Assembly: GCA_040954595.2 (NCBI GenBank)
Contig: CM082580.2
Coordinates: 1,912,783 to 1,976,782, forward strand
Length of the DNA stretch: 64,000 bases
From: Balanoglossus misakiensis
Taxonomy: Eukaryota; Animalia; Hemichordata
Direction of reading: 5' to 3'
Shown: positions 2,308 to 60,775 of the stretch, in pieces
Numbering within the stretch: position 1 is the stretch's first letter
How the letters are laid out: each line of letters begins with the position of its first letter
Notes under the pieces: generated by a model
Told to the model about the DNA's origin: nothing
The model's database searches: none
The model's input: only the letters and a program-made list of their open reading frames with translations
Position numbers and translations under genes: made by a program

Positions 2308-2394
2308 TACTCTGAATGTTTGAAGAAACTTTACAAACCCCATAAAAATTCCCATCTACATAAAATGGAGCAGCAAACAGTTATATGGATGTTA

Positions 2395-14065: not shown

Positions 14066-15704
14066 CTAAAAAAATAAATAATGAAATGACATCAAGGATG
14101 ATAAATAACAAATTTCATTATTTCAAATAAAGTGGAATCATACCACAGGTCTGTTTCCTCGTTTTCATGTAAGCTTACTTGCAAATTAAATATTGATAGC
14201 GGTGTCAATTGTCCAGGTCTGAGACAGTAAATTGTACTAGTTTACTGGTTATAATGAAGAATTACAGGCCCACCATTATAATCACAACTTGAAGCTGTCT
14301 AAGAGAGCGAACATTATTTATTTAGGGCCTGAAGAGGTGTTGGAGGAATTTCACCAGGCATATATGCATGCCAAACCAGGCCTGTTGCTGGATTATAACC
14401 AAAGGTGTAAACATACAGTTACTGCAGCCCCATCGCGACCATCGCGAAGCGATCGTGCCGTGTGCCTTTGCTCACAAGGTTAAACCTCGAGCTACGATAC
14501 GGTTCTGCAGTTGCGTTTGGGTTTAGTCGTGTATCACATCATATCGTGGCTGAAAACTGTATTTTACCTGTCTCATCATTGCTTGGACCATGACTCCTTG
14601 ATTCATCTCGATATGACTCGAGTGGAATCCACAATAAATCAATATAATATTACTTCTGGTCGATGCACCGACACTCGAGTGTCATGGCGCTCGAGTGTTT
14701 TTTTGACAGGCCAAAGGTCAACCCTGTTGAGGGCGTGCTCCGGTTATAATATTATAATACTGTACTATAAAAATAACTTTCAAGGTGAAAATGAACTGCG
14801 GACGGGAACGTGGGCCTGCACTGGTCGATACCATATTATTTATGGGATTGTCAATGCCGACAACCTAGTTTAACATGTGTGTCTGCAAAATAGTCCGAGT
14901 AAGGCTACAAAGTGAAACGAACTGCACCACACAGTCATTGCAGCTTGTTCAACGCCAGAAAATTAAAATACAAACAGCTGGCAGAAAACTTGGTGTGTTT
15001 TCGTTTGGATATTCTAAGAATGGAAAACATATCGCTCGAGGGCACTAGCTGAGCTCCGTCATCATTCAGTGTATGTGAAAAATAGCCCCAAAGTATAGAC
15101 AGTGACACTATAAAAATAATGGCGGCTGCACAGCGAAAGCCACTAATAAATATTTCCAAAGGTGGTTAGCAGAAAAGTGGAGTTCGCTCATTTGTCAATT
15201 GTGGCAAATGCTGTAGACACGGAGCAAGTAGGCGAGAATACTAATGCGAGAATATTGGTAAAATTAAGAGTCTTGTCACTTCTCTTTAGAAGTTGCTGGT
15301 TGTTTATTCTCCTTACTAAGCATTTTTTCGATCGCTAATAAATTGCATGGGGTTAAAACGTGTTTGATTTTGAAATTCAAGGCCGTGAGTTTAGTCGATC
15401 ATAATGAAAATAAAAACTACCGAGGCAACAATTTTCCGTTTTCCCCATGGGTGAAAATATCTCGAAATTGAGCGCGTTGGCTATTCAATTGTTGTCTACC
15501 ATTCAATTTTAATTCATTTGACTGAGTTATGTGTAGACTACGGCAACCGAGAAGGCTCATGAAACAAGAATACTATTTGTGACTTTTTTTTTAAATTCTT
15601 GTTCGTTTTTGTGTTTATACTTAACATCTTAGCTTGAATTTTCTTTAACTTTGATTTTAACTTTTAATTTCTGTTTAATTTTAACTTTAATTTTAACTTT
15701 AACT

Positions 15705-16275
15705 TTGATTTCGATTTCGATTTTGATTTACGAAATAAAAAACGATCTAGATTTTGATTTTGATTTCCATTTCGATTTTGATTTCGATTTTGATTTACGA
15801 AATGAAAAACGATCTCGATTTTGATTTTGATTTCGATTTTGATTTCGATTTCGATTTTGATTTACGAAATGAAAAACGATCTGAATTTTGATTTCGATTT
15901 CGATTTCGATTTTGATTTCGCTTTTGATTTCGATTTTGATTTACGAAATAAAAAACGATCTGAATTTTGATTTCGATTTCGATTTTGATTTCGATTTCGA
16001 TTTTGATTTTGATTTCGATTTCGATTTTGATTTCGATTTTGATTTTGATTTCGATTTCGATTTTGATTTCGATTTTGATTTACGAAATAAAAAACGATCT
16101 GAATTTTGATTTCGATTTCGATTTTGATTTCGATTTTGATTTTGATTTTGATTTCGATTTTGATTTCGATTTTGATTTTGATTTCGATTTTGATTTCGAT
16201 TTTGATTTTGATTTCGATTTTGATTTCGATTTTGATTTTGATTTCGATTTTGATTTCGATTTTGATTTTGATTTC
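15705..16275. repeat. (GATTTY)n hexamer array inside the left TIR
   Basis: Direct inspection; mirrored at 20045-20680, with a short third copy at about 19083-19186. Confidence 0.95.
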
Positions 16276-18520
16276 TTTTTTTCAACCTTTGAACTCTGAC
16301 CGTTGTAGCTATCAGTTGTTCGTCGTCAGAGGGCGCTATTTCACCCCTTTGAAAGTTTTGGTGACGAATCATTGGTGTCATAAGACCCCTCATCGCGACG
16401 TAAAGCTGCCTTTCAACAAAACATAACAAAACCAACAACACATACGGTCAATTTCATGTTCAACACATCCTACATGACAGAAGAGACTTTTCCACACCTG
16501 GTTCAGACTTCAATATATTTATTTGCCATAAAAAAGGATGTTGTTAAAAATATAACAATATCTGAGATAGTCTGAGCAGTTGCATGATTCTGAAGAAAAG
16601 GTTAAAATTCGGAATAGGAATAGGTTACAGAATACAAATTTTTAAAGATAAAACCGAATTAAGGACCCACAAAGTAAAGCAAACAGGGTAAAATCAATTT
16701 GCTTGCAATTTTATGCAAAATGAAAAAGTTAACGTCTATGCAAGTCTGTACAAAAAAAATCAAAAGTCTCTAAAGCCCGCCAAACCCTTTCACCCTAATT
16801 TTCTGTCCATAGGTCCCACCATACCACTGACAACAATGGGGCCATACCAAATATTGGAGGGTGAAGGGGGGTAACAATCAAGTACACAACAGATAGCTAC
16901 AATATTGCACATATTGTCTGATTCAAATATACATATAGCTAAGCTAAGTCTCAACTCGCACCACCAAATTACTTTGTATTTGAAGCTGATAGGCACTCTT
17001 ATTTACGGAATTGATCAGAGTGAGAGACGCTCTGAATGAGTGTGCATGGGTATACACGTGTGTGTGTGTGTGTGTGCACGCATGTGTTTGTATACACATC
17101 ATGTGTGCAAAAGCTGATCTTGGTGGCGATTGTATAAGAAACCGACTGAATTGTGAAGGAAATACACCATGTCTTGCTCTCCGCTATTCCACTGCAATAC
17201 TACAGGAATAAATAAAAAAACAGTTTTGAGAAGCATTTGTCTTGGGAAAGCCTTACAAAGTGCTACAGATTCATCTCTGTAACAGTTTGACCAAGATGCT
17301 GCGCTTGGAGCACTGCTTTTCTAAACTGTTCACACCATCATCGTTACATCTTCTGAACAATTAAATAACCCTACATCTCTAACTATCTAACACAGCCTAC
17401 ATCTCTGTCCACAAAGTGCTTTGAGTTTTAAAGCTTGCAATTAAATTGCAGGTGACATACGAGTCAACAATAAAATTAAAAATACAAAAAACAGCTACAT
17501 GTACACAAACTCATTAATATTAATAAGCCAATGTCTTAAAAATGTAAGAAAATGGTCGTCCAGCAGCCATATTGGTTTGTATGACACAAATCAACATGCA
17601 TACATGTGTGTGTACAGTATGTCATGTCTTGTGGACCCAAAAGACATTTTCAAAGTTAAAAGCAATGAGTGGCCATTTTAGTGCTCTTTATGATATTTAG
17701 GTAATACCCTGGTACTACAATTGGCAGATATATACATTACCTCCAGGAAATGCCATGATCTTTCTGTAGATATTTAAGGATAGTTTTGTTATCCTTTCCT
17801 CGTATAACCAAATGTTCTAGGTACTCCGAAATATTCATACTATCTTAACACCTGCACAGGATATAAAAAGAATATTAAAAATGATTCTTTCCATAATTAT
17901 TTTTAGACCCAGGTAAACAGCAATGACAAATGTAAATGCATGGCAGAGCTACTCAAGGTTTTGCCTGGTTTGCCACATGTCATAGGGACTGCTCTATGGC
18001 GGTCACATTCACAATCGCGCCAAAACAAAACACTCTTACATAAAACTTAAATTGTAACTGAAACTTGGATAGGGCGATACTTCTAACCAACTGGTCCGCA
18101 GGTGATAATCAAGCTCTACAACGTACGTCAGAATAGGTCGTATAGCTAATAATTACTGGCCATACTCGTAGCGACACCCTGACTCAGCTAAAGACAAGTC
18201 ACTCAAGCTGATGTCGATGTCACTCAGTGGTCATTGAGGACACTGCAAATGACTTCTAGTTTGGGCATTTTGCATGAATTACGAGGCAGTTAATATGTTA
18301 CAAGCTTTAGAGTATTGTTTGGTTTGTTCAACCGACCCGCATTTCTGTCAACATTCTTTGAACGTGCATGTTTTGATGCGGAGTTGTGAGGCGCTAGCGG
18401 CGCAGCCATTGCTGGACAATCTCGAAATGTACTCGTAGGGTAGCTGCAGTACCGTAGCTCGAGGTTTTGCCTGGGCGTCGGACGACAAAACCGTCTACAG
18501 TACTGCAGTTACTCGTTGGG

Positions 18521-18551
<31 letters not shown>

Positions 18552-20044
18552 GTACCAGGACTCACTAAGCAAGTTCGTGACTTAGCCTAGTAGTACTGGT
18601 ATAGTATGGCAAGTAACCGGCTATGGCTGCGCTGCTAGCGCTTCACAACTCCGCACCAAAACAGGTGGAGGCGGCGCGGCCATTTCATAGCCGGACACTC
18701 GCCAAGTATGGCTAGTTCTTTACTAATCATCTCATGCATGTGCCTAGCTGCAGAACCGTAGCTCGAGGTTTTGGCTGGGCTTGTGGGTTGGACGCCAACC
18801 CACCCACATGCACAAACCCAGCCAAAACCTCGCGCTACGGTTATGCAGGTAGCAAGTGCCGGGCCCGTGATCATGCCGTCGGGACAAGATCGTTTGCTAT
18901 GGTCACCGTACCGACCTCCCTATATTCACGTGATTTACCCCGGCCATGCGAAATCAGAGAAGTTTAAACACTAAAAACTTACGTGATACGATATTTCTGA
19001 GCGAAGACTATCCAAAACTCGATGAAACGCGTCGCATCACGTCAACAACACCAACGCTTAAAGTTAAAAGGTTCAAAGGTTAAAGTTCAAAGGTTAAAGT
19101 TCAAAGGTTGAAAAAACGAAATCGAAATCAAAATCAAAATCGAAATCGAAATCGAAATCAAAAACGAAATCAAAATCGAAATCGATTTGCACATTTTATT
19201 TCATGTGAAAGAGTAACTAAATGTGCAATGATTGAACACAAAATATTAAAGACATTTAGACAAATTTATGCCAAAAACAGCTTTTTAATCGTATTTGACC
19301 TTTGACCTCTGATTTTCAGCTATCCTGATCGAGGATGGGGTCAACTTGTAGAGACAGGGACAATGGGACGGTATAACACTTGAAGCTACAAACAGCTTAT
19401 ACGTGCCTTAGAGCCGTACAGTTACATTTAACATTTTAATGCAAATGTTTGAGTAAATCCATGAATTTTATGTTAATATCATAGACTAGTTTAAAGGCTC
19501 TGACCATTTTTTAATTATTTTAGTTTGAAACTAAATAATATTTCATGTTATGGTTTTTACCAAATTATGTGGTAAATGGCCCATCATTCTATTGGTATGG
19601 TCAGAGAATCACCTGTAAGTCGCAACATAAAACTGTCATTATGATCCTCCTTAAGACTATACATGTGTATTGTTTTGCTGATAAAGGACAGTGGCCTCAC
19701 ACTTTACACAATGTTTAACCAGGAAGTAACGCACGGTCGCGAAGGGAGTATATTTTTCGTCGGCGATTTCCATCCGTGGCGTGATTTTTCCAGCTAAATA
19801 TAGGATATTTTAATTTCGATTAGTTTAATTGAGGTAATATTTAAGTCTACTGTCCAAAATTGAAGTTTTAAAGTGGATTACGTATTTTGTCTGCTACGTT
19901 CCACGCCAGAGTTTTGTCTGCTGGGATTTGTCTTCCCACTTCCGAGCCGATTCAACAATACTGGATATTTGCATAAAGCCTTTTTTATTGGTCCACAGGT
20001 ATCATGTGACAATCACGAAGGTCAAAGTTCAAAGGTTGGAAAAA

Positions 20045-20680
20045 CGAAATCAAAATTGAAATCAAAATCAAAAACGAAATCAAAATCAAAATCAAAATCA
20101 AAATCAAAATCGAAATCAAAATCGAAATCGAAATCAAAATCAAAATCAAAATCGAAATCAAAATTCAGATCGTTTTTTATTTCGTAAATCAAAATCGAAA
20201 TCAAAATCAAAATCAAAATCGAAATCAAAATCGAAATCGAAATCAAAATCAAAATCAAAATCGAAATCAAAATCGAAATCAAAATTCAGATCGTTTTTTA
20301 TTTCGTAAATCAAAATCGAAATCAAAATCGAAATCGAAATCAAAATCAAAATCGAAATCACAATCGAAATCAAAATCAAAATCAAAATCAAAATCGAAAT
20401 CAAAATCGAAATCGAAATCGAAATCAAAATTCAGATCGTTTTTTATTTCGTAAATCAAAATCGAAATCAAAATCGAAATCGAAATCAAAATTCAGATCGT
20501 TTTTCATTTCGTAAATCAAAATCGAAATCGAAATTGAAATCAAAATCGAAATCGAAATCAAAATCTAGATCGTTCTTCATTTCGTAAATCAAAATCGAAA
20601 TCGAAATCAAAATGGAAATGGAAATCAAAATCAAAATCTAGATAGTTTTTTATTTCGTAAATCAAAATCGAAATCGAAAT
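20045..20680. repeat. (RAAATC)n hexamer array inside the right TIR
   Basis: Reverse complement of the 15705-16275 array, with a different copy number. Confidence 0.95.
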
Positions 20681-21296
20681 AAAAGTTAAAGTTAAAATTA
20701 CAGTTAAAATTAAACAGAAATTAAAAGTTAAAAACAAAGTTAAAGAAAATTCAAGCTAAGATGTTAAGTATAAACACAAAAACGAACAAGAATTAAAAAA
20801 AAAGTCGCAAATAGTATTCTTATTTCATGAGCCTTCTCGGTTGCCGTAGTAGACCTAAACGTTCATGAAAATGACAATAGCAGACGCGGGTTTTCCAGCA
20901 ATCCTATGGGAAAAGACAAATTGAAAGCGCTTGTACAGATTGTAATTTATACTCGGTTGGCTGTAGCTCTGCGTACAGGTCTGTTATGTGTGTTCCCGGC
21001 GTTACACGGAGCTAGGTTGGCTGCTGTCTTCCACGTGGATCTATTCATGGTGTAAGGTGTGCCTCAATACTTTCTATTTCATTCGACGCTAATGTTTAGA
21101 CCATGTAATTAGTTCTACTGTATGGAGATAGTCAATTATAGAGGCCCTGGTCTGCCTTTAGGGTTCATGTAAATCATGACATTCTTATGATAGCAATTGG
21201 TCCGACTTGCTACTTTGAACCATGTATTGTTTTGGCATTGCTGCACTCAATGTCGAATACGCCCGGCTGCGATTATTCCAACACGTAGGCCTAACT

Positions 21297-21610
21297 CATA
21301 TTCCGTTGTGATGCGTAGAACACACTGGCCTGAGCGAATAAGAAAGTTTTCCGGTAGACTCTGTAGATCGACGGTTTGTTCTAAAATATCCATGGTTGCT
21401 TCCAAACTCCGTCTCGTTATTTGCATATTCCGTTGTGATGCGAATACACACAGGCCGGAGCGAATAAGAAAGTTTTTCGGTAGACTCTGTAGATCGACTG
21501 TTTGTTCTAAAATATCCATGGTTGCTTCCAAACACAGACTCGTTATTTGCATATTCCGTTGTGATGCGAGAACACACAAGCCTGAGCGAATAAGTAAGTT
21601 TTCTGGCAGA
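21297..21610. repeat. 126-bp satellite array, left part (about 2.5 units)
   Basis: Unit CTCTGTAGATCGACTGTTTGTTCTAAAATATCCATGG...; continues in register after the LTR element. Confidence 0.92.
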
Positions 21611-21898
21611 TGTTGTGGAACGAGGTTATTGCGTCATAGCGCCGATCATATCCCTCGACTCCCGAAGCATTCCGAAGTGTTACGAGGATGACGTTACATC
21701 CGGGATCCCTCGCTCTTCCGTCGGCTGCTTCACTTGCTATCCGAACCCCCAAACCGACCAGACGTGCGTATACGTGCTCATCCGGCCGATCCACCTAACT
21801 ACCACTAGTACCAGTCCAAGTGACTTCATAGCTACTTAGAGCTAGGTAGGTGTATCCTTACACTTAGCAACAGTATTAGTGTCAGTGTAAACACTACA
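21611..21898 (+). repeat. 5' LTR
   Basis: TGTTGTGGAACG...ACACTACA; I found only one difference from the 3' LTR by eye (GTGCGTATA versus GTGCATATA). Confidence 0.97.
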
Positions 21899-21899
21899 T

Positions 21900-21912
21900 T
21901 GGCGCTGCGAGT
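21900..21912 (+). promoter_or_regulatory. Primer-binding site, probably tRNA-Ser
   Basis: TGGCGCTGCGAG one base after the LTR; complementary to a ...CTCGCAGCGCCA tRNA 3' end typical of Ser tRNAs. Confidence 0.75.
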
Positions 21913-22923
21913 AAATTTTTCGAGCCTTTGCCGAGATTTACTCAGGTTTGCGTTGTGTTCCGTGCTCTTTTCACGATCACGCGCACCAACAATTTTTTTT
22001 CAAATAATTTTTTACTAATTCCGTGAATGATACCGATATAAAAATTAGTAGCACTAGATAGTTTTTATTGTTCTTCACTGAATTATTGTACTTTTTGTGG
22101 AATTTCCTCCCAGGAAATTTTTTTTTTTTCAAGAAAAAGAAAAAACCCGACCCAGTGCTGTGCACATCACGCGCGAAGTATAGAAAACGGTAAAATAGAC
22201 AAATTTTCAAGAGGCCGTAAAACTTTTTTGATTTTTGCAAAATAAAAAAATTTGGACCAGTTTTGAACATTTATAGTTAAAGAACTTTGTCCTGAAATTT
22301 CACTTTCTAAAAACGTTTTTTAAGAATTTTACGGCCCTTTCAATTTTTTTTTTTATCTCGACAACTGTGACAAGCTCGCGTATATAACGAGCAACAGGTA
22401 ACCGTAACTAATCACCGCAAAATATTCACGGTGACTCACAGAAAACTGGAATCATCATCTCCAGTTGTGTCTATTATTTAAAAAAAAAAAAAAATAACTG
22501 TGTTGTTGTTTGAAAAAATTCATTTTTAGAAGTTGTTTTACAAATTCTTTTTTCTCGTACGGAAAAATTCGCGCGCTTAGGGTCACGCGCACAGGCTGTG
22601 GTCGTTCGTTGCTTCTCTGACGTCACCGTTGTTCTCGGTATCATAAGAAAGCAACGAATTTTTGAAAACTAGTGCTACAAAATAATTTTTTATATATCAG
22701 GATCATTTCTATTCATATTCGATATATAATTAAGGCCAAACTAACATTTTATTTTTTAAATCAATATAGAATATTTATTGTTTTATTAGCTAGGGATTCT
22801 TTAAATAAATAAAGGGTACTAAGCCCGAACATTTTTTCCACTTTTAGAATAATAAGGGATTTAAATAGTATTTATTAATTCCCCGTTACACCCCAATACG
22901 CATAATTTGTGCTTATTTAAAAG

Positions 22924-24795
22924 ATGTCAGAAATAAACATCAACGAGTGCTCGTATGAGGAGTTATTAAAACTCCCAGGGATTGGCAAGCACATAGCCAA
23001 AAAGATCACACACCTCAGAAAAAAATTCGGCAGGGTAACCGAGGAAATGCTGCGCAAGCATATAGCGCGATTTCGTCCGCCGCAAAGATTTTATGACATA
23101 GTCATATTCGAGGACCAAACCGCTACCAACGAACACCAAAGCGCGAGCGAAAATGAAACTGAAGAAGACCGTACATACGCTTCTGATAAAGTAAAGGGAG
23201 ATACGGAAAAAGAGGATAATGGTGATGATAGAGCTGACATAAAACAGGACAAAGTCGTAAGGATGGAAAGAGAAAAACAAATTCATGAAAACGTAGCTAA
23301 AATCGTCAATCTAAAGAACGAACAAAGCGGAGACGATTTCGCTACCAACACCCGTCGAAATTCGGGAGTGAATAGACAAACCAATTTGACTTGGGATGAA
23401 AATTCCCGTGAATATAAAAACGAAGTCTCCATGAGAGACAGAGATCCGTATTCGCTTCGCGAGGATGACCGTGATCGTAGATACGAAAACCGCGGACCAC
23501 TCAGTAGAGTGAATAGGGAAAGTAGGGAGAGAACACCACGTCAACAATATTATTCAATAGATCTGACTCAGTCACCAGAATATGAACGAAGACGCCACAG
23601 CAGATCACCGACTCCCTATCTACAACCTGTATTTAGTGATAGCAGGTCTTCCCCTCGCGAACCCGACCATCATCATACGCCAATGTCATCTCGAAATATC
23701 CGGGAATTTGATCCCCAGGTCTCCGAAATATATCCATCCGGACATACCTATAGACGAGGATCCGGGAATGTTAATGGCGGCAACGGATTTGAAGAGCGAA
23801 CAACAAACTCTTTTCCGAAGCCGTCAAGCATTCCCAAAACATTAATTTATAATGGAACCTCAAACTGGAGAACCTTCAAGACGAAATTTCTCAAATATGC
23901 TAATGCTAGTCAGTGGTCAGCTGACGTGCGTAAGGATTACTTGTGTTGGTTTCTTGAAGGGAAAGCGAACGACTATTACACATTACTGGTCGAACGAGAT
24001 ACCAGTATCAGTTTTGACCATGTAATGCGGAAATTAGAACGCCGATTTGGTTTCCGTGAATTACCGGAGACCGCGCAAGTTGAATTTCAACAAGCACGGC
24101 AACAGCCCGACGAAGTTCTCGAGGACTGGGCTGATAGAGTACTATCGCTCGCGGTGAGGGCCTATAGTGATGTATCTGATGAACACATGTACAAACAAGC
24201 AGTAATGCGATTTTGTCAGGGCTCGACGGACAAGGAAGCTGGCCAATATATAGCCAATCAGCGTCCAAAAACCATCGAGGATGCGATCGACTGTATGCGT
24301 TGGTACCAGCACAACCATAAGGCTATCTATGGGAAACAGCGCAAAGAGGTGAGATATATCACCCCAGAAAGAGACCAAGAGGATGAATTGGTCTCAGTGC
24401 AGGCCGTGACGCGTCATTCGTCCATGTCAAATCAACATGATACACGAAATCACCAAGACATGGGTAATCGTCGACCAGCAAGGGACCATAATATTACTGA
24501 TGTAGTCAAAACCATGGAAAGACATATGGCCCAAGTTGAAGCCCAAATGACAAAAATGACCACTATGTGGGAGTCAGTCGACACGCAGATGAAACGTGTC
24601 GTCGGTAAATTAACAGAGAGGAGTCGATATACTAGCCGATCTCCTTCTCCAAACAGCAGGGGTTGCTTCCACTGTGGCAACATGGGACATTACAAAAGAA
24701 ATTGCCCTCAAATGTCTCCAGCAAAAAATGAGTCAGCAAGAAAACAAGTACAATTTGTCGAGGAAAACGACAACGGGTCGGCGGACGAGGCCTAA
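22924..24795 (+). CDS. gag: Gag with N-terminal helix-hairpin-helix motif, capsid-like region and CCHC zinc knuckle
   Basis: 623-aa intact ORF; ININECSYEELLKLPGIGKHIAKKI (HhH), YNGTSNWRTF..F and QQPDEVLEDW (retrotransposon Gag), CFHCGNMGHYKRNC. Confidence 0.93.
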   Translation: MSEININECSYEELLKLPGIGKHIAKKITHLRKKFGRVTEEMLRKHIARFRPPQRFYDIVIFEDQTATNEHQSASENETEEDRTYASDKVKGDTEKEDNGDDRADIKQDKVVRMEREKQIHENVAKIVNLKNEQSGDDFATNTRRNSGVNRQTNLTWDENSREYKNEVSMRDRDPYSLREDDRDRRYENRGPLSRVNRESRERTPRQQYYSIDLTQSPEYERRRHSRSPTPYLQPVFSDSRSSPREPDHHHTPMSSRNIREFDPQVSEIYPSGHTYRRGSGNVNGGNGFEERTTNSFPKPSSIPKTLIYNGTSNWRTFKTKFLKYANASQWSADVRKDYLCWFLEGKANDYYTLLVERDTSISFDHVMRKLERRFGFRELPETAQVEFQQARQQPDEVLEDWADRVLSLAVRAYSDVSDEHMYKQAVMRFCQGSTDKEAGQYIANQRPKTIEDAIDCMRWYQHNHKAIYGKQRKEVRYITPERDQEDELVSVQAVTRHSSMSNQHDTRNHQDMGNRRPARDHNITDVVKTMERHMAQVEAQMTKMTTMWESVDTQMKRVVGKLTERSRYTSRSPSPNSRGCFHCGNMGHYKRNCPQMSPAKNESARKQVQFVEENDNGSADEA

Positions 24796-24825
24796 GCTTG
24801 ACCCGCTCGATCATTAGGGGGCCTC
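24762..24825 (+). promoter_or_regulatory. Predicted -1 ribosomal frameshift signal (slippery heptamer plus H-type pseudoknot)
   Basis: G GAA AAC in gag frame at 24762-68, 6-nt spacer, stem 1 GGGTCGGC/GCTTGACCC, stem 2 GAGGCC/GGCCTC; the pol frame is -1 and open from 24732. Confidence 0.7.
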
Positions 24826-26477
24826 AGAAACAATGTAAATCATCTTTACTATCACCTGTAGAGACAGGTAATAGGCAAGATGATTACGATAGTGATGAAT
24901 CTGATTTCCGTCGACACGGGAATAAGACTCTGCATATTCCGAGTTCTGCATCCGTAGAAACGGATTCGGAAAACAGTAAAATGGGAGGGAAAAACACATC
25001 AGAAACAGAAAGCACAAAGGCGAACCAGGAGAAAATCGTGATATGTCACATCAGCTCTGGTTCGATGTATACTGTACCAATACAGTTGAATGGGTGTCTA
25101 ACTCACGCTATAGTCGACACAGCGGCTGAAGTGACTATAATATCGGATAGATTATACAACAGCTTCAATATTAAACCACGCATCATAAAGAAAGTATCCA
25201 TGCATACCGCAGGAAGACAATTGCAAATGCAAGCGTTTGTTGCTGGTCCAATAGAAATAAAATTGGGCAGCCAGTGTTTCCAAGAAAACCTATACGTTGC
25301 TCCCATTGGGAACGATATGTTGCTTATCCTAAAACCAAGTGGAGCCCAAGTTCTTTTTGACAAAGAGCAGCTTAGGATAGGCAAAAACGTAGTGAAAATG
25401 TCATACAAGGGGAATTCAAAGCAACCTTTGGTAGCCAAAATAACTGTCCCTGAGTCGATCGAAATTCCACCTTTCCATGTGGCCAGAATTTCTTGCAACA
25501 TGGATAAAAGGTTACCAGAGTATATCATTGAACCGGAACATGATCAAAGGGTAGTAATCCCAAGGATTTATCAGGAGGGTGCGGAACATCCAGTAGTTTG
25601 TCTGGTAAACCCATCACCTGGTAAAGTTACAATCGGTTCTGGGAAGATAATAGCCAGGGCAGTTTCGGCCACTTTGGTGTCTCCTGAAGTTCCTGATGAC
25701 ATCACACATGTGGGGCAAGTGACAGCCAATGTAAAAACGGGAGAAATGAATGTATTGCCCCAATATTTACAAAGCCTATTTCTGCGCTCCAGCACACATC
25801 TAAATGATCATGAAGCGGAGGAACTGCAGAAGTTATTATATGAATACCAAGATGTGTTTGCTGAAAACGATTACGACTTAGGCAATTTCACTGCTATTAA
25901 ACATAAGATCAGTACAGGAAATGAAAAGCCCATTAAGCAACGTTTGAGACGAACGCCGATACGTTTTGATCAAGAGGAGGAAACACATTTAAAGAAAATG
26001 CAAGAGGCTGGTGTTATTAAACCGTCGATATCGGACTGGGCATCAGCTCCTGTTTTAGTCAGAAAAAGGGATGGATCAGTACGATGGTGTGTGGATTATC
26101 GTGCTTTAAATAATATCACAGTTAAAGATGTATTTCCTCTCCCTTTGGTAGAAGAATGTATGGACACACTCGCTGAAACCACGCAAATGCGAACTCTTTC
26201 AGCGTAAAGTAGGGTTCTTGGGTAGAATTGTTCAACAAGGGGGGGATACAATTAGAAGATTCGTCTGTTGAAGCCGTAGAAAAATGGCCAATTCCACGAA
26301 GTACTAAAGACGTGGAGAAATTCTTAGGTTTAGCAAATTACCATCGTTCATTTATCAAAGGGTTTGCAGATATAGCAACACCATTATATCAAGTGAAATG
26401 AACAAAGGCGTTATTGCACTACGCGTAAAGAACTGCTGGCTATAGTACGTTTCACACGCCAATTTAGACATTACCTG
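24798..26477 (+). pseudogene. pol: pol 5' part: aspartic protease plus RT and RNase H remnants with internal deletions
   Basis: AIVDTAAEVTIIS (protease); SDWASAPVLVRKRDGSVRWCVDYRALN..FPLP (RT start) jumps out of frame to LKPRKCELFQRKVGFLG..FLGLANYHR (thumb), then to RRYCTTRKELLAIV; no YxDD and no RNase H DAS motif. Confidence 0.9.
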
Positions 26478-28595
26478 TTGGGTAATCACTTCACAGTGAG
26501 GACGGACCATAGCAGTTTACTATGGTTACTACGTTTCAAAGACCCACAGGGACAACTTGCTAGGTGGCTGGAAGAATTGAGTCAATACAATATGACCGTA
26601 GAACATCGCCCAGGGAAAAAACATTGTAACGCCGATGCGTTATCAAGGATACCCGTTGATATCGGGTGTCAGGAGTACAAACACAATATAGAACCAGGCG
26701 ACCTGCCCTGTGGAGGTTGCAAATACTGTAAGCGCGTCCACCGAAATTGGGCAAGATTTATCGATGACGTCGATGACGTTGTACCATTGGCGCAAGGCAC
26801 TGGCATTCAAAAAGAAATACAATGTGTTCATCCTACATCACCTGGTAATGGTGATCCAGGTGGAGACATTGATTACAGTTATGGTCTAGACTGGTTGTGG
26901 GATCCTGTGGTAAGGGAACATATACCAGCGGAAACTCATGAGAGAGAACAAGAAAGTGAAACTCACCATACAAATTTAGAGATTGTATCAAAGCCATGCC
27001 TTGAACAAAACTCCCACATGTATCCCAAAGTATATGTTATGACTCGAGCCGATTCCATAAGAGCGGAAGTCTCTAGTTATGGTAGCAATAACCTTATGGA
27101 GGCTCAATCAGACGACCGAGATCTTGATATTTTGTTATCTTGGTTACGCTCAAAGGAAACACCTTCCGAAGGGAAACTGTTTTTGGCTAGTCCAGCAGCA
27201 AAAAATTACTGGATTAACAGGGAACTATACCTCTTGGAAAATGGTGTTCTTTGGAGAGTGGGAGAGGATGACCAAAGAAAGCTGTTGGTAATCCCTAGAT
27301 CATTACAAGCTGAAATACTTGAAATGAAACATAATTTGCCATCGTCAGGTCATCAGGGTATAACGCGCACTAGAATACGGGTGATGAATAAGTATTATTG
27401 GTACGGAGTGTCACAGGATGTACGTCGATTCGTTACCTCTTGTGATATTTGTAGTCAAAATAAGAAACCCACCCGACACGCAAAGTGTACATTAACTAAC
27501 TACCATGCAAGCAGTCCCATGGAACGAGTGCACCTGGATTTCTTGGGGCCTCTGCCAAAGACAGACAAGGGAAACGAATACATCTTAGTCATGGTAGATC
27601 AGTTTACAAAGTGGGTAGAATGTGTACCGCTTCCATCACAAACTGCAGAAGTCACTGCGCAAGCGGCAGTGAACGAATTCTTTTCTCGTTCTGGCTACCC
27701 GTTTCAGATATTTACTGATCAGGGTAGAAACTTTGAGAGTAAATTGTTTACTGCTATTTGTGAGGTACTCAAAATACACAAAGCCAGGACTACACCGTAT
27801 CGACCCTCTGCTAATGGCCAAGTAGAACGTTACAATCGAACCCTAATGGATGCCGTTAGGTGTTTTATTGGCAATTCGCAAAATAAATGGGACAAATATC
27901 TGCACCAAATAGCAGGCGCATTGAGATCATCCGTAAATCGTCAAACTGGGTTCACACCCAATAGGTTGATGCTCGGACGGGAAGTAAATCATCCTGCAGA
28001 TCTAATGTTTGGCAATTTATCTAACAACAGATGTCAATCAGAGGACACTTACGTAGTAGAATTAGAAAATGCCATTAAATTTGCTCACGAAGTCGCTCGC
28101 GAAACTCTAAAAACGAGCCAGAAACGAATGAAACGTGACTACGATATTAAAGCGAATATTCATACATATCACGTGGGAGACTGTGTATATATATTGGATA
28201 CCGCTACAAAACCTGGAAAATGTAGGAAACTTTCAAAACCATGGAAGGGTCCAGGTGTAATAATAGAACAAAGAACACCATTCATATTCAGAGTTAAATT
28301 ACCCAGGATGATTATTACTGTGAACCATGATAGACTAACCTTGTGCAAACAAGAGAAACTACCATCATGGATAGTAAAGTACAAGTCTAATCTAGAGAAA
28401 AACAAAAACAGGACTAACTCATCTGATGGACAAACATCTGACAAATTGTATTGCATTTGTAGAAAGCCAGATGATGGCAAACTCATGATACAATGCAATT
28501 CTTGCTATGAGTGGTACCATGGTGTGTGCGTAGGGTTAACATCACAAAACGTCGCAGATATCGACAAATATACTTGCCCTATGTGTGCACTATAA
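26478..28595 (+). CDS. pol: pol 3' part: RNase H end, intact integrase (HHCC, DDE core, GPY/F-like motif) and C-terminal PHD finger
   Basis: VRTDHSSLLWL; H..SSGHQG...CDIC; VHLDFLGP, FTDQGRNFES, NGQVERYNRTL; WKGPG; LYCICRKPDDGKLMIQCNSCYEWYHGVCV...YTCPMC. Confidence 0.93.
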   Translation: MGNHFTVRTDHSSLLWLLRFKDPQGQLARWLEELSQYNMTVEHRPGKKHCNADALSRIPVDIGCQEYKHNIEPGDLPCGGCKYCKRVHRNWARFIDDVDDVVPLAQGTGIQKEIQCVHPTSPGNGDPGGDIDYSYGLDWLWDPVVREHIPAETHEREQESETHHTNLEIVSKPCLEQNSHMYPKVYVMTRADSIRAEVSSYGSNNLMEAQSDDRDLDILLSWLRSKETPSEGKLFLASPAAKNYWINRELYLLENGVLWRVGEDDQRKLLVIPRSLQAEILEMKHNLPSSGHQGITRTRIRVMNKYYWYGVSQDVRRFVTSCDICSQNKKPTRHAKCTLTNYHASSPMERVHLDFLGPLPKTDKGNEYILVMVDQFTKWVECVPLPSQTAEVTAQAAVNEFFSRSGYPFQIFTDQGRNFESKLFTAICEVLKIHKARTTPYRPSANGQVERYNRTLMDAVRCFIGNSQNKWDKYLHQIAGALRSSVNRQTGFTPNRLMLGREVNHPADLMFGNLSNNRCQSEDTYVVELENAIKFAHEVARETLKTSQKRMKRDYDIKANIHTYHVGDCVYILDTATKPGKCRKLSKPWKGPGVIIEQRTPFIFRVKLPRMIITVNHDRLTLCKQEKLPSWIVKYKSNLEKNKNRTNSSDGQTSDKLYCICRKPDDGKLMIQCNSCYEWYHGVCVGLTSQNVADIDKYTCPMCAL

Positions 28596-28803
28596 TCATG
28601 GAAAATATATGACAACATGCAATAACTCTGAATAATGTTATGCATGTGAATTAACAAAATATTTTCCATGTTTAATCTTTCAGACATCCTACCAACCCGT
28701 GGCCAACGGATCGGGCAGGACTTATCCCGAGGTATACGGGAACTGAAGAGAATAATTATTATTTTTACGTTATTATAAAGTTTTTTATTTACATTTAATT
28801 TAA

Positions 28804-31125
28804 ATGGCTGAAGAACGCCAGAAGAAAACCTCTAGTCTGCGTGATCCGGAACGGTGGCGACGTGTGGTGAACACCATCGAAGAAAAGATCGCCAGAAGAT
28901 ACCTGATTCCGGCCCGGGAATTAATGTCAGAGCTTGGTTTCTGCATGGGCCTGGAGTCAGGTATAATTCAAGATCTGGTCACCAGGCAGGACAAGATCGC
29001 CGTTCAAAGAGGAGACTGGGGGTGGGTAACGGAAGCTCACAAGTGTGAGTTTTGCTGCTCATTGGCCTGGATGCAGGAGAACATCCCTCACAAAAATCCA
29101 AGGATGAACCAACCAAAGGTGAAGCCAGTCTACCACCATGAGTTCAACGAACGAGGGATGGTCAGGGACTGCAGACTGAGCTACCGGACAGACCTAGTGA
29201 CAACTAGACAAAATGCGGCAACTGGAGAGGACGTTTTAATATCCGCATCCACTCCAGCGGACCAGGCCGAGATCCCGGTAGACAGTGACCGTCCTGACCA
29301 GGCACCGACAGTTGAGTCTAATGGGAATGGCGTTCACTCGGAACAATCTCGTGGACACGAGGAGACGAATGAACGCCCACCAGCTACAGCGACAACCTCA
29401 GCTTCATCCACCGACCAGGCCAGCCAGCGGTCAGTCCCACCTCCCGCCCCAACCAGGGGGAAACGTCGATTTCAGTCGACGGCAGACAAGAAGGGGAAGA
29501 AACGGGAAAACTTTAAAGTTATTTCTACCTTCTCCGTGGTATCCGGAGGGGAGTACGAAATCTCCAGAAAGGTTTCCCGAACAAACCAATCAACGGTGAA
29601 AGGGGGACAACCATCAATCCCGTCTATTCCAACCGACCCTGGCAGCAGAGCAGCCAACTCTGGTAAGAACCCGGACAGAAAGAAGAATCGCCAAAAGCTA
29701 TGCAAGTGCCCCGAACAGGACTGCTCCCTGACAACGTCAAAGCTAAAACACCACGTCCTGTACACTCACATCTCGCCCGCATTATGGGAGATGAAGTACC
29801 GCAATGAAGAACCGGACACAGAGAAAATGGGCATGGCTCTAGACCAGCTAGCTAAGTGGATCCTTGGCGCTGGAGCGACAAAGGAGATGCTATGGAGGTC
29901 CTTCGTGGACGACCATAGCGAAGTGGAGAGGATACCAGCCACCTCTGAGCTGTCCGACGAGTATCAAAGGCTGATGAGACACCTGTGCCTTTCAAATAGT
30001 TGGGAGATTCCGGAGAAGTTTTTGCTGAAGCCACCGAACTCTCCAGCGGTAATCATCCATTGGAGGATTATCTCCATTATGATCAGCAAAATATCACCGG
30101 AGCAACGGAAACAGTTCCGTGAGCTGTTTGATTCGTTCCGGGATGAACCGTCGACAGCGGTGAAGCCTGGGGGAGAATCAGCAGATAACGGAAATCCAGA
30201 ACGACCCGACGGGGAAGGCACTAGCAGACCACCAGAGAGCCATCAATCTACCACAACCCCAGTTTCTGCGGATGAGATGGAGACACAAGAAACCGAAGTG
30301 TTTCCCGAAGCTTGGGACTCACATTTCCACCTGGACCGTACAAGTCGATGCTTGTTTGGGAAAGGGTGGAAAGTGACTTCAGACGAGCTCCTAAGGGCAC
30401 CTGATCTACCAATGCCTAAACATCCGGTACACTCCATACATGGAATCGAAGTCTACAGTGAGCCCGATCAGTACCCATCCGACTTCGATAGGAACGAAAA
30501 CTGGAAAATCGCACTGGGGGTGCATCCAAAAGCCATCCACCGACAGACCGACGAGAAGTTCCAGAAACTTGGAGAGCTGATTTTGTCGCCCCGAGTGATC
30601 GCCCTCGGTGAAGTCGGTCTCGACAGGATGACCCCGTCGGTAAACTGGAAAAAACAAGAGGAGACCCTGGTGCGACTTCTGGGGTTGGGGATGCCAAGGA
30701 AGCCGATCATCTTACACATACGTGGTACCCACGCGGATAGATACTCCATCGATGTCAGTGGCTGCGCCATGAGAATCTTGCGGCAATGTTGTGCGCCCAC
30801 ACAACGGGTGCACCTCCATTGTTTCTCAGGCAACCGTTGGCTGGCACATCGTTGGATGAGGGAGTTCCCTAACATCTACTTCGGCTTCACTGGTCTGGTG
30901 GCAAAATTCGATAAGGAGCAGAGGCGGGCCCTACAGGAGATTCCGGGGAACAAAATACTTATTGAAACTGACTCTCCGTACTTCCCGCTGACCCAAGAAG
31001 TGGACGTCAACACTCCACGATACATCGGAGACGTGGCATCCGCAGTAGCAGAAGTGAGGGGAGTGTCCACCCGCGAACTTCTGGAGACTACCGTGGCCAA
31101 CACCAAGAATGTGTACCAGGTGTAA
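28804..31125 (+). CDS. tatD: Third ORF of the Gypsy element: low-complexity N-terminus, C2H2-like finger, helical region and C-terminal TatD-family metallo-nuclease
   Basis: 773 aa intact; TatD motifs in canonical order from about 30301: WDSHFHLD, LGVHPK, IALGEVGLD, PIILHIR, VHLHCFSG, FGFTG, ILIETDSPYF, NTP..I..VA..VAEVRGVS; also CPEQDC..x..HVLYTH. Confidence 0.92.
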   Translation: MAEERQKKTSSLRDPERWRRVVNTIEEKIARRYLIPARELMSELGFCMGLESGIIQDLVTRQDKIAVQRGDWGWVTEAHKCEFCCSLAWMQENIPHKNPRMNQPKVKPVYHHEFNERGMVRDCRLSYRTDLVTTRQNAATGEDVLISASTPADQAEIPVDSDRPDQAPTVESNGNGVHSEQSRGHEETNERPPATATTSASSTDQASQRSVPPPAPTRGKRRFQSTADKKGKKRENFKVISTFSVVSGGEYEISRKVSRTNQSTVKGGQPSIPSIPTDPGSRAANSGKNPDRKKNRQKLCKCPEQDCSLTTSKLKHHVLYTHISPALWEMKYRNEEPDTEKMGMALDQLAKWILGAGATKEMLWRSFVDDHSEVERIPATSELSDEYQRLMRHLCLSNSWEIPEKFLLKPPNSPAVIIHWRIISIMISKISPEQRKQFRELFDSFRDEPSTAVKPGGESADNGNPERPDGEGTSRPPESHQSTTTPVSADEMETQETEVFPEAWDSHFHLDRTSRCLFGKGWKVTSDELLRAPDLPMPKHPVHSIHGIEVYSEPDQYPSDFDRNENWKIALGVHPKAIHRQTDEKFQKLGELILSPRVIALGEVGLDRMTPSVNWKKQEETLVRLLGLGMPRKPIILHIRGTHADRYSIDVSGCAMRILRQCCAPTQRVHLHCFSGNRWLAHRWMREFPNIYFGFTGLVAKFDKEQRRALQEIPGNKILIETDSPYFPLTQEVDVNTPRYIGDVASAVAEVRGVSTRELLETTVANTKNVYQV

Positions 31126-31447
31126 AGCCCTGCTCCGTCCTAACCGTAGATACGGTGAAAACATTTCAGTTACTGAACAGTTTACTTTAAACAATTTATT
31201 TTCGAGGAATGTCTAATTCCGTCTACCCGGAGACAGACTTTCCTCACGGTGCAGTTTACTTTAAACAGTTTACTTTTAAGGAATGTCTAATTCCGTCTAC
31301 CCGGAGACAGACTTTCCTCGCTTATTTCACAGTGAACTATTATATCTCGTTACATCCCGTCGCTACGGGAAAGACTGGAGGACAGTATCCGACATTTGAC
31401 GCCCGATTACATATTATTTATTGGTGCCCTGGAAACAAGCCAAAAAC

Positions 31448-31461
31448 AGAACGGAGGAGAG
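31448..31461 (+). promoter_or_regulatory. Polypurine tract
   Basis: AGAACGGAGGAGAG immediately before the 3' LTR. Confidence 0.85.
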
Positions 31462-31749
31462 TGTTGTGGAACGAGGTTATTGCGTCATAGCGCCGATCAT
31501 ATCCCTCGACTCCCGAAGCATTCCGAAGTGTTACGAGGATGACGTTACATCCGGGATCCCTCGCTCTTCCGTCGGCTGCTTCACTTGCTATCCGAACCCC
31601 CAAACCGACCAGACGTGCATATACGTGCTCATCCGGCCGATCCACCTAACTACCACTAGTACCAGTCCAAGTGACTTCATAGCTACTTAGAGCTAGGTAG
31701 GTGTATCCTTACACTTAGCAACAGTATTAGTGTCAGTGTAAACACTACA
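31462..31749 (+). repeat. 3' LTR
   Basis: 288-bp match to 21611-21898, followed by the TSD CAGA. Confidence 0.97.
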
Positions 31750-32521
31750 CAGACTCTGTAGATCGACTGTTTGTTCTAAAATATCCATGGTTGCTTCCAA
31801 ACGCCGTCTCGTTATTTGCATATTCCGTTGTGATGCGAGAACACACAGGCCTGAGCGAATAAGTAAGTTTTCTGGCAGACTCTGTAGATCGACTGTTTGT
31901 TCTAAAATATCCATGGATGCTTCCAAACGCCGTCTCGTTATTTGCATATTCCGTTGTGATGCGAGAACACACAGGCCTGAGCGAATAAGAAAGTTTTTGG
32001 GTAGACTCTGTAGATCGACTGTTTGTTCTAAAATATCCATGGTTGCTTCCAAACTCCGTCTCGTTATTTGCATATTCCGTTGTGATGCGAATACACACAG
32101 GCCGGAGCGAATAAAAAAGTTTTTCGGTAGACTCTGTAGATCGACTGTTTGTTCTAAAATATCCATGGTTGCTTCCAAACTCGGTCTCGTTATTTGCATA
32201 TTCCGTTGTGATGCGTAGAACACACAGGCCTGAGTGCATAAGAAAGTTTTCCGGTAGACTCTGTAGATCGACTGTTTGTTCTAAAATATCCATGGTTGCT
32301 TCCAAACACTGTCTCGTTATTTGCATATTCCGTTGTGATGCGTAGAACACACAGGCCTGAGTGCATAAGAAAGTTTTCCGGTAGACTCTGTAGATCGACT
32401 GTTTGTTCTAAAATATCCATGGTTGCTTCCAAACTCTGTCTCGTTATTTGCATATTCGTTGTGATGCGTAGAACACACTGGCCCGAGTGATTAAGAAAGT
32501 TTTCCGGTAGACTCTGTAGAT
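31750..32521. repeat. 126-bp satellite array, right part (about 6 units)
   Basis: Period of 126-127 nt; same unit as 21297-21610. Confidence 0.93.
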
Positions 32522-33588: not shown

Positions 33589-36500
33589 TTTTTAGGGTTT
33601 CGAGACCCTCTGGTCTCGAAACCCTCTTGAAATCGTGTTGTTTTTTATTAGGGCCCAAGCGCATGCAAGCGCTTGGGCCCTATTGGTTTCGTTGGAATTT
33701 TTTACGGGCCCAAGCCAAGCCAGGCTTGGGCCCGTATTGGTTTCGTTGGAATTTTACTTTCTTTCTTTATTCTTGTGTCAATTCTTTGACCCACGAGATC
33801 TCAGACACCGCTGCAGGTACACTTCTGAAACTTGCTACAGTGGTCAAAGTCAATGAGTAGTCGTGCATTGAACCCTTGAATTTTTAATTAGTCACGTGAC
33901 CTGGCGGCCATATTGGATTTTCTGAAAATCTTTAAATGGCTTCTTCTCAAAAACCACAGGGCCAATCAAGTTCAAAGTTGGTGTATGGTACACATGTCCT
34001 TTGCCCTTCAAAGTTTGACAATAAAATCCTGAGCGGTCACGTGACTTTGGCCGCCATATTGGATTTTCGAAAAAGTACAGTAAAATCTTCAAAAATCTTC
34101 TTCTCCAGAACCGGCTATAACCGAGTCATGGGATTTAGGGTATGACATCACCTAACTGATGTTTATCAAGTTTGCGAAGAGCGTTGTGATTGGTCGAAGA
34201 TTATGGCGGCCATATTGGATTTTGTAAAAACCAGCGAAAATTAATAAATCATTTTTCTAGTCTAAAAATAGATAGCATACAAATTCTTTTTATGGATATG
34301 AGTCGTCATATGACTAGAATATGTTGCAAATATTTTGGCAATTTTCACATGACCTTTGACCTACTTTTTTAAGAACCTGCATATATGCATATATAGCTCA
34401 TACTACGTGTTCTAAATGTACCAGAGTTTTGATTTTTGTGCACATTGGTATCACCCCTGCCAGGACCTACCCCAAATATTTTGGTAATTTTGGCAATGAC
34501 CTTTGACCTACTTTTGACACATAGTTTTTTTTTCTGCATATCTAATTCCAGGCTAACCTATAGGGCTATCATTTTGGTTTTTGATGTATGTGGATTTGTA
34601 TGTGATCAAAAAATTTTGCTACTTTTCATGACCCCTTTGACCTCTGCTGACCTCATTAAATATGTGCATACTTAATTACAGATGAACCAATAGACCTAGA
34701 GGTTTGGTTTTTGTTGGACATGAACCAGTATTGGGTCAATTTTTTTTGCCCAAATGTTGGGTGACCTTTGACCTACTTTTGCATATCTCGACATCCACAG
34801 CAGATACAGCCTTGGCGTTTGGAGGTATGGGGCCATAATGAAAAGCCAAAGTTTTGGGTCACCTGTGACACCTGCTTAACTCATTATTTATGTACATACC
34901 TAATTCCGGGCTAACCAAAAGGGCTAGAGGTCTGGTTTTTGTTGGACATGGACCACTATGCGTCAAAATTTTCTGCCCAAATTGTGGGTGACCTCTGACC
35001 TACTTAACACTATATCAACACCAAACATAGATATAACCTTGATATTTCATGGGATAAAACACAGCATTATGTTTCTACTCATTAATTATGTGCATATCTA
35101 ATAATCAGATCAGATAATAGAGCTTGGGCCCGGACAATGCTGCTGGCAGCTTTAATTAGGGCCCAAGCGCATACCAGCGCTTGGGCCCTATTGGTTTCGT
35201 TGGGGTTTTTTAGGGCCCAAGCGCAAGCCAGCGCTTGGGCCCTATTGGTTTCGTTGGGGTTTTTACGGGCCCAAGCCAAGCCAGGCTTGGGCCCGTATTG
35301 GTTTCGTTGGAATTTTACTTTCTTTCTTAGGGCCCAAGCCAAGCCAGGCTTGGGCCCTATTGGTTTCGTTGGTATTTTTCAGTCTTTCTTTCTTTCTTTC
35401 TTTCTTTATTCTTATGTCAATTCTTTGTCGCTCTAGATCTCAGACACCACTGCAGGTACAGTTTTCAAACTTGCTACAGTGGTCAAGGTCAATGAGTAGT
35501 CATGCATTGAACCCATGAATTTTTAATTAGTCACGTGACCTGGCGGCCATATTGGATTTTCTGAAAAAATGCAAATCTCAGATCTCAGAAACTACAAGTC
35601 AGATCGACTTCAAATTTGGCGTGCAGGTAGACTACCTTCTGTCAATCATTTTTGTAATTGGAAATTATGCTGACAAAGTTGCAGTTTTTTTGCTACAATT
35701 TTTTTTCTGAAATCTGGCTTAAATTTCAAAAATCTTCTTCTCCAGAACCAGTGATAACCGAGACACAGGGTTTTGGGTATGTGGTCACCTAACTGATGTC
35801 TATCAAGTTTGCGAAGATCATTGTGATTGGTCGAAGATTACGGCGGCCATATTGGATTTTCGAAAAACCCTAGTAAAATTTCAAAAATCTTCTTCTCAAG
35901 AACCGGCTATAACCGAGTCACAAGATTTGGTGTGTGTGGTCATTAAACAGATGTCTAACAAGTTTGCGAAGGGGAATGTGATTGGTCGAAGATTATGGCG
36001 GCCATATTGGATTTTGTGAAAAACGATTAAAAAGAAAAAATTCCCTTTCTAGCCTAAAAATTGATAGCACAGAAATTCTTTTTATGGATATTAATCATCA
36101 TATGCCAAGAATGAGCTATAAATATTTTGGTAATTTTGGCAATGACCTTTGACCTACTTTTGACGCATCATTTTTCTGCATATCTAATTCCAGGCTAACC
36201 AATAGGGCTATAAGTTTGGTTTTTGATGTTTGTGGATAAGTGTGTGATCAAAATATTTTGCTACTTTTCATGACCCCTTTGACCCCTGCTGACCTCATTA
36301 ATTATGTGCATAGCTAATTACAGGCAAACCAATAGACCTAGAGGTTTTGTTTTTGTTGGACAGGACAAGTATGGGGTCAAATTTTTTTACCCAAATGTTG
36401 GGTGACCTCTGGTGACCTTTGACCTACTTTCGCAAATCTCAGCATCCACAGCAGATACAGCCTTGGCGTTTGGAGGTATGGGGCCATAATGAAAAGCCAA

Positions 36501-60733: not shown

Positions 60734-60775
<42 letters not shown>

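Follow-up and report, generated by a model that had tools for sequence, protein, structure and literature searches.

A TatD-type accessory gene in a young Ty3/Gypsy retrotransposon of Balanoglossus misakiensis and its probable relatives in bivalves and sea urchins

Results

A Gypsy element with a TatD domain in its third gene

The window analyzed here is a stretch of 64,000 nucleotides from the hemichordate Balanoglossus misakiensis (assembly GCA_040954595.2, contig CM082580.2, positions 1,912,783 to 1,976,782, forward strand). It contains a Ty3/Gypsy retrotransposon with four long open reading frames (ORFs), all on the forward strand, shown in Table 1 with the other features of the element. 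The last of them, designated ORF3, lies between the integrase stop codon at 28595 and the polypurine tract and 3' long terminal repeat (LTR), where the first-pass annotation, made from the sequence alone, had placed it. Its protein ends in a domain of the TatD nuclease family and is the main subject of this report.

Assignment to the Ty3/Gypsy LTR retrotransposons follows from direct LTRs with TG...CA ends, a short target-site duplication, a primer-binding-site-like sequence, a polypurine tract, and the order protease, reverse transcriptase (RT), RNase H, integrase in pol, the last as judged with intact relatives alongside. The tRNA matching the primer-binding-site-like sequence is possibly that for Ser. 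Because the two LTRs differ at a single base, the CAGA duplication flanks the element, both priming signals are present, and a satellite array is split by the insertion, the element is a real and recent insertion. The first-pass annotation had called it a young Gypsy element with an intact TatD gene. Its youth and the integrity of ORF3 hold, as do the helix-hairpin-helix (HhH) domain in Gag (Pfam E 1.8e-8) and the PHD finger on the integrase (Pfam E 5e-9); that pol is broken had escaped it.

Table 1. Features of the element and its insertion site, in window coordinates.
Feature	Positions	Strand	Basis or remark
126-bp satellite array, left part, 2.5 units	21297-21610	+	element inserted within array
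Target-site duplication CAGA, left	21607-21610	+	sequence read
Ty3/Gypsy element, 10.1 kb	21611-31749	+	LTR-to-LTR span
5' LTR, 288 nt, TG...CA ends	21611-21898	+	LTR comparison
Primer-binding-site-like sequence	21900-21911	+	begins TGG, 1 nt past 5' LTR
gag, 623 aa	22924-24795	+	N-terminal HhH, PNMA/retrotransposon-Gag core, CCHC knuckle
pol, first part: aspartic protease and start of RT	24732-26207	+	frame differs from gag; overlaps gag end
Broken RT/RNase H region	26173-26400	+	alignment to four intact relatives
pol, last part: RNase H C-terminus, integrase (H2C2, rve), C-terminal PHD finger	26397-28595	+	Pfam
Putative splice acceptor: pyrimidine tract ending CAG	28671-28683	+	pattern scan; 120 nt upstream of ORF3 ATG
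ORF3, 773 aa, stop-free, ATG start, intronless	28804-31125	+	ORF list, translation
ORF3 N-terminal helical domain, ~aa 2-110	28807-29133	+	pLDDT mostly >85; conserved in family
ORF3 C2H2-like zinc site and helical HWR domain, ~aa 300-447	29701-30144	+	family-specific
ORF3 TatD domain, ~aa 501-773, group II HxH type	30304-31122	+	Pfam, structure, ligands
74-bp tandem duplication in 3' untranslated region	31178-31319	+	
Polypurine tract	31446-31461	+	directly 5' of 3' LTR
3' LTR, 288 nt, TG...CA ends	31462-31749	+	LTR comparison
Target-site duplication CAGA, right	31750-31753	+	sequence read
126-bp satellite array, right part, 6.1 units	31751-32521	+	

The TatD domain of ORF3

A search of ORF3 against Pfam model TatD_DNase, a check proposed with the first-pass annotation, gave E 2.2e-39 and 135.8 bits, against a curated cut-off of 27; the protein scores below the cut-off of NCBIfam model TIGR00010 (120.7 versus 206 bits). 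All five metal-ligand motifs that the annotation had named were located: DSHFH at residue 505, GEVGLD at 602, LHIR at 637, HCFSG at 672, and ETDSP at 721. The corresponding ligands are H507, H509, E603, H638, H672, and D723, together with E721. An N-terminal HxH followed by Glu, His, His, and Asp ligands is the definition of group II TatD proteins (PMC10085689; papers are cited by accession, in each case for their available text), and ORF3 has this set.

The predicted structure of the domain is a confident model with the TIM-barrel amidohydrolase fold, nearest to TatD structures. Its best structural match is YcfH (Z 30.3, rmsd 2.5, 248 residues aligned), also the best match by sequence in the Protein Data Bank (PDB). 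Fourteen TatD-type chains score Z 26-30 before a drop to Z 18.9, and the group II enzymes compared score Z 27-30. Among 205 matches to ORF3, with P0072 and P0073 excluded, the ligands are conserved in nearly all rows covering each position: H507 in 181/184, H509 in 174/184, E603 in 193/203, H638 in 194/203, H672 in 191/201, E721 in 192/198, and D723 in 190/197. By analogy to other group II TatDs, ORF3 is likely to be an active metal-dependent 3'-5' exonuclease.

Domains outside the TatD region

In the predicted structure of ORF3, disordered linkers connect three folded parts, and both parts outside the TatD domain are predicted to fold confidently. Of 188 long family members, 139 have a recognizable N-terminal helical domain. 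The middle domain carries the HWR motif and the C2H2-like finger that had been noticed ahead of the TatD region; its four residues are nearly invariant across homologs (C302 in 123/125, C307 in 126/127, H317 in 129/131, H322 in 136/137). A model of these two domains found no match in the PDB by Foldseek at E<=0.001, none in a viral library, and no usable match in the ESM Atlas, while the best result of the VIA fold search was only Z 6.6, to generic helical repeats. Because the query was a two-domain model, these blanks say nothing of a new fold.

ORF3 lacks a transmembrane segment (the maximum Kyte-Doolittle score for any 19-mer is 1.16) and a signal peptide. With this hydropathy and a TatD domain, the element does not belong with the env-bearing, errantivirus-like Gypsy elements. 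A basic cluster resembling a nuclear localization signal (NLS) occurs at residues 220-234. Third-position GC content is 0.59 in ORF3 (28804-31122) versus 0.37-0.43 in gag and pol, a difference that may stem from separate expression or from an exchange of modules.

Homologs and their linkage to pol

ORF3 has 72 homologs, the named ones from oysters, pearl oyster, scallops, clams, mussels, and two sea urchins, and 230 family representatives were collected at E<=1e-30. One homolog, from Pecten, is annotated as TATDN2. TatD domains of family members are about 36% identical to each other. The homologs occur as near-identical copies dispersed over chromosomes: 13 Mya proteins lie on 11 contigs of differing size, and seven Pinctada proteins on six. 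In Dreissena, clusters of the family hold 47 and 20 members.

Three observations tie these proteins to pol. The first is P0503, a protein of 2038 residues in which a single ORF runs from protease through RT, RNase H, and integrase into the zinc/helical domain of ORF3 and the start of its TatD domain. It is 99% identical to the pol of its own cluster up to residue 1511, lacks the PHD finger, and is 27% identical to our ORF3 in its ORF3-like part. On the simplest reading, P0503 would have arisen by a deletion that joined integrase to a downstream ORF3 on the same strand. It was the sole match of the ORF3 profile among 231 proteins of the pol list. A search for ORF3 fusions among proteins longer than 1354 residues returned none; that blank marks the limit of sensitivity of the search, because P0503 surfaced later through a cluster look-up.

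The second is the sharing of contigs. Three of the 16 TatD-bearing contigs of 5.5-20 kb have the exact size and source of one of 84 pol-bearing contigs, the pol list being the best 120 of 364 matches of at least 1282 residues. The mean for the null is 0.064, and only 7 of 200,000 jittered sets reach three. The three pol proteins on these contigs are complete with PHD, and both genes fit on each contig. The third is the 90% cluster of P0055, in which 7 ORF3-type and 8 pol-type proteins appear among the 15 listed of 182; as its ORF3-type and pol-type proteins do not overlap, a member bridging them is presumed to exist. Linked integrases are 49-65% identical to the one in our element and fall in at least five separate places on a 123-row pol tree, in which the ORF3 status of unlabelled rows is undecided rather than negative. 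The HhH-Gag and PHD-integrase, seen in the first-pass annotation as parts of a toolkit of the element, are common to its relatives: a PHD-like tail occurs in 100 of 120 pol matches, and HhH-Gag in P0362 and P0514.

Comparison of copies points to selection. In all six sets of near-identical full-length copies, both the first 130 residues and the first linker have diverged more than the TatD part, and in five of the six so has the second linker; this is a protein-level proxy for selection, as distinct from a ratio of nonsynonymous to synonymous rates. Taken together, the linkage and the copy comparisons make it very likely that PHD-integrase Gypsy elements of bivalves and sea urchins carry the same ORF3 with them, and that the gene is subject to selection. 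The proposal of a Gypsy lineage with a dedicated TatD ORF is supported by dispersed copies, the P0503 fusion, shared contigs, and domain-wise constraint. The outcomes named at the outset as fatal to it, that other members lack the ORF or that it is a one-off neutral copy of a host gene, were checked indirectly and are not what we see.

The ORF3 zinc/helical domain was unmatched at the TatD loci returned for the ORF3 alignment, 10 in viral contigs and 80 each in genome and metagenome contigs, and matched in 0 of 2 symbiont-related genomes. The integrase query found no relative in viral contigs.

Several side observations were made among these proteins. Megabase-scale coincidences of contig size (1427658, 3324222) between TatD and pol proteins are weak. 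P0030, an oyster gene model that joins the pol linker, ORF3, and a YqaJ-like part, has little weight because its matches overlap. In P0356, a pol of the same clade, a Tpt1/KptA RNA 2'-phosphotransferase domain (Pfam E 4e-43) is lodged between the integrase and the PHD finger; by its sequence it is another nucleic-acid-end enzyme captured by these elements. Proteins P0007, P0021, P0023, P0027, P0033, P0052, and P0346, which comprise ORF3-family members and one pol of the clade, are annotated in Sedimenticola or Ca. Thiodiazotropha bins, and likely represent host retrotransposon DNA.

Damage to pol in the present copy

Alignment to the four intact relatives shows that RT is short of about 90-100 residues near 26175-26205, that the frame changes near 26235-26245, and that the RNase H region is short of about 45-75 residues near 26395-26400. 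The FLDD motif of RT, found in all four relatives, falls inside the first gap, and no FLDD-type motif is left in any frame. The first RNase H catalytic motif, which the pattern located in three of the four, falls in the second. The present copy is non-autonomous: as it now stands it cannot have moved with its own RT, because the catalytic motifs of both enzymes are deleted. It would have been mobilized in trans by intact relatives, or else damaged soon after insertion.

Contigs from two sequencing runs of one sample cover 30 of 30 bins of 24700-31749, including ORF3. For run X1 the variant records comprise 37 at 99+% likeness, 44 at 95-99%, 21 at 90-95%, and 5 under 90%. Some run contigs have loose ends adjoining the RNase H gap. 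These contigs fit a multi-copy family whose other copies would differ at that gap.

Origin of the TatD domain

A quick tree was built from 56 of 143 extracted match domains and 30 of 80 prokaryotic TatDs, with no named TATDN1, TATDN2, or TATDN3 among the sequences. The 54 ORF3-type rows group together (SH-aLRT 92) and apart from the prokaryotic TatDs (SH-aLRT 99), with P0072 and P0073 branching between. Of the 54 family rows, 46 have the motif [FY][CS][DE]P and 41 have W...FP after HCF; both motifs are present in P0072 and P0073 and in none of the 30 prokaryotic sequences; human TATDN2 presumably carries motifs of both types. From their spacing, the ORF3 motifs appear to match two TATDN2 cysteines named in PMC10711561. 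P0072 and P0073, each of 995 residues, combine a group II TatD with a C-terminal Schlafen AlbA_2 domain, and may be TATDN2-like host proteins. A TATDN2-type donor of the ORF3 TatD domain is plausible, although neither identity nor profile score places P0072 nearer to the family than prokaryotic TatDs. On the reading we favor, ORF3 would be a long-standing accessory nuclease of TatD group II, possibly derived from TATDN2.

Other features of the window

Several further repeats and long ORFs occur in the window. A 427-aa ORF at 50451-51734, with DUF3504 and tyrosine-recombinase domains, is in our estimation Crypton-like. A 662-aa ORF at 53893-55881 has a reverse transcriptase domain and is probably part of a non-LTR element. 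Three long ORFs (347, 943, and 323 aa) occupy 56409-60804, the 943-aa one with only a sub-threshold DUF6589 match. An element-like stretch at 1454-6055 has 699-nt inverted arms (1611-2309 and 5207-5905) that are 99% complementary. Inverted arrays of a 6/12-nt repeat flank about 4 kb at 15585-20803 in a foldback-like arrangement, and 33750-44800 is a tandem array of units of about 1.4 kb with a 237-bp sub-repeat.

Discussion

Relation to known TatD proteins

E. coli YcfH and YjjV and human TATDN2 and TATDN3 have the same HxH, Glu, two His, and Asp ligands as ORF3 (PMC10085689). Unlike the group II TatDs compared, ORF3 is encoded by a retrotransposon and fused to an N-terminal helical and a C2H2-like/helical domain. 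Human TATDN2 is close to it in size (761 versus 773 aa), and both have a long, partly disordered N-terminus and a C-terminal group II TatD domain (PMC10711561). By motif, E603, E721, and D723 of ORF3 would match E593, E705, and D707 of TATDN2. TATDN2 is, however, encoded by the host genome, and the published account of its N-terminus is of a disordered region that lacks the two folded domains of ORF3 (PMC10711561).

A proposed function

We favor, with a probability of roughly 0.6, the reading that ORF3 of this young, non-autonomous insertion is likely an ancient nuclease accessory to a Gypsy clade of marine invertebrates, one that would act as a trimming enzyme on the 3' ends of RNA or single-stranded DNA, with the RNA strand of R-loop-like structures formed by the element as its most likely substrate. 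Group II HxH TatDs degrade single strands as metal-dependent 3'-5' exonucleases and also act as AP (abasic-site) endonucleases (PMC10085689). Human TATDN2 degrades the RNA of R-loops, and requires E593/E705 and, for binding, its long N-terminus (PMC10711561). In fish, TATDN2 protects germ cells (PMC12709183). By analogy to TATDN2 on host R-loops, a tentative course of events can be put forward. ORF3 would be made from its own, probably spliced, message, with its own ATG at 28804 and the acceptor-like site ending at 28683; the protein would enter the nucleus; its zinc and helical domains would aim it at RNA or DNA structures related to the element; and there it would trim RNA 3' ends, ridding the element's R-loops or hybrid intermediates of RNA.

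A broader proposal is more doubtful. The clade, ancient and present in more than one phylum, with its HhH-Gag and PHD-integrase, might have captured a TATDN2-type R-loop nuclease, added two new folded targeting domains, and come to clear RNA in germ cells from the element's own loci or intermediates and so escape RNA-guided silencing by the host.

A number of observations count against the function and history we favor. The conservation of ligands is partly circular, because the matches were gathered with ORF3 as the query. At the [FY]C[DE]P cysteine found in 37 of 54 family members, this copy has Ser. Contigs of both runs have a one-base insertion at 29823, inside ORF3, with compensation not judgeable from the rows listed. 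Thirteen of the 16 short TatD contigs have no size match to a pol contig, which says little because the pol list held the best 120 of 364 matches. Searches for loci with the ORF3 alignment gave prokaryotic TatDs only, so the DNA context of the homologs is known by inference. Integrase and TatD identity over six pairs gave a Mantel rho of 0.6 (p 0.12), which falls to -0.26 without one outlier; co-evolution of the two is unsupported because of that p value and its dependence on the outlier. As to origin, P0072, the sole eukaryote-like outgroup, is no nearer to the family than the best prokaryotic TatD, both by identity (27.4% versus 27.1%) and by profile score (146.5 versus 147.6). As to function, TATDN2 is only minimally active on plain RNA:DNA duplexes (PMC10711561), and the intact relatives carry an RNase H of their own.

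Other explanations

The strongest rival, which we nonetheless consider unlikely, is that ORF3 is an active TatD working on DNA, trimming or cleaning 3' ends and abasic sites in cDNA or at integration gaps and so helping to finish reverse transcription or integration. The HhH DNA-binding motif of Gag would agree with such a role. Host cells, however, already supply enzymes that repair 3' ends and abasic sites. ORF3 is also a separate ORF outside the pol polyprotein, with its own NLS-like cluster, and its packaging into particles is therefore not implied. In favor of action on DNA, the nearest solved relatives, YcfH and TatD, are 3'-exonucleases of single-stranded DNA as well as AP endonucleases (PMC10085689).

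We think it improbable that ORF3 serves instead as a counter-defense factor that degrades or binds host silencing RNAs or nascent-transcript scaffolds, with its nuclease activity perhaps partly dispensable. The authors of the rotifer study discussed below consider a silencing role for their exonuclease ORF3s (PMC5408684), and in comparisons among copies both non-catalytic domains of ORF3 equal the TatD part in conservation, but the catalytic ligands are almost invariant in the family.

That the TatD ORF is a passive recent retrocopy of a host TATDN gene, or that its homologs are ordinary host genes and the linkage a one-off, has very little chance of being right: some homologs are called TATDN2 or TatD in public annotations, third-position GC sets ORF3 apart from gag and pol, and the genomic context of the homologs was not directly read, but the family shares two extra domains at only about 36% identity in TatD, occurs as dispersed near-identical copies, and shows domain-wise constraint, and the P0503 fusion and shared contigs largely refute it.

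Precedent for enzymatic third ORFs

In errantiviruses such as Drosophila gypsy, a third ORF likewise lies between integrase and the 3' LTR. That ORF, env, is probably expressed from a spliced message, as proposed here for ORF3; ORF3 of our element differs in having an enzyme fold and neither signal peptide nor transmembrane segment. The closest precedent is in bdelloid rotifers, where the Gypsy-like LTR elements Juno and Vesta have, as here, an enzymatic, non-env ORF3 downstream of pol (PMC5408684; also cited in the review PMC5718144). Their ORF3 is either a GDSL esterase or a DEDDy 3'-5' exonuclease whose catalytic residues are intact and whose function is undemonstrated, and the DEDDy/RNase D fold is unrelated to the TatD TIM barrel (PMC5408684). 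The rotifer ORF3s are family-specific and, within the genome, do not clearly deviate from neutral evolution (PMC5408684), whereas the ORF3 described here is apparently clade-wide across phyla and has two extra conserved domains. TatD has no mention in the available text of that paper.

Mollusc Gypsy clades described earlier, MolGy1-16, C-clade, CsRN1, and others, share hosts and superfamily with the ORF3-bearing elements and were classed by RT and RNase H (PMC6238403); the clade of our element is probably among them. The available main text of that survey has no mention of TatD, PHD, ORF, or nuclease, and the available text of an annelid survey (PMC8220671) none of TatD or PHD. In agreement with the first-pass annotation, which knew of no functional description, we found no description of TatD in Gypsy elements in the searchable literature, a search that stops short of Repbase, GyDB, subscription journals, and supplements. 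An exonuclease in the ORF3 position has precedent; what appears new, within the literature searched, is the TatD fold in that enzymatic, non-env slot, apparently throughout a clade.

Significance

Most non-env third ORFs of LTR retrotransposons still lack an explanation. A widespread clade with a conserved TatD provides a small, soluble enzyme that can be assayed directly for its substrate, and therefore makes the role of enzymatic ORF3s testable. The TatD domain is preceded in ORF3 by two N-terminal domains with confident predicted folds, unmatched in the libraries searched with the two-domain model. TatD follows the rotifer DEDDy enzymes as a second 3'-5' exonuclease fold occupying the ORF3 position, and the two are structurally unrelated, which points to a convergent need. 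The finding also bears on annotation: many of the bivalve and sea urchin genes that go by TatD, TATDN2-like, or YcfH-like probably belong to this retrotransposon, as probably do some "TatD hydrolases" assigned to symbiont genome bins. If the capture of a TATDN2-type nuclease is true, hundreds of "TatD/TATDN2-like" genes in bivalves and sea urchins would be retrotransposon accessory genes.

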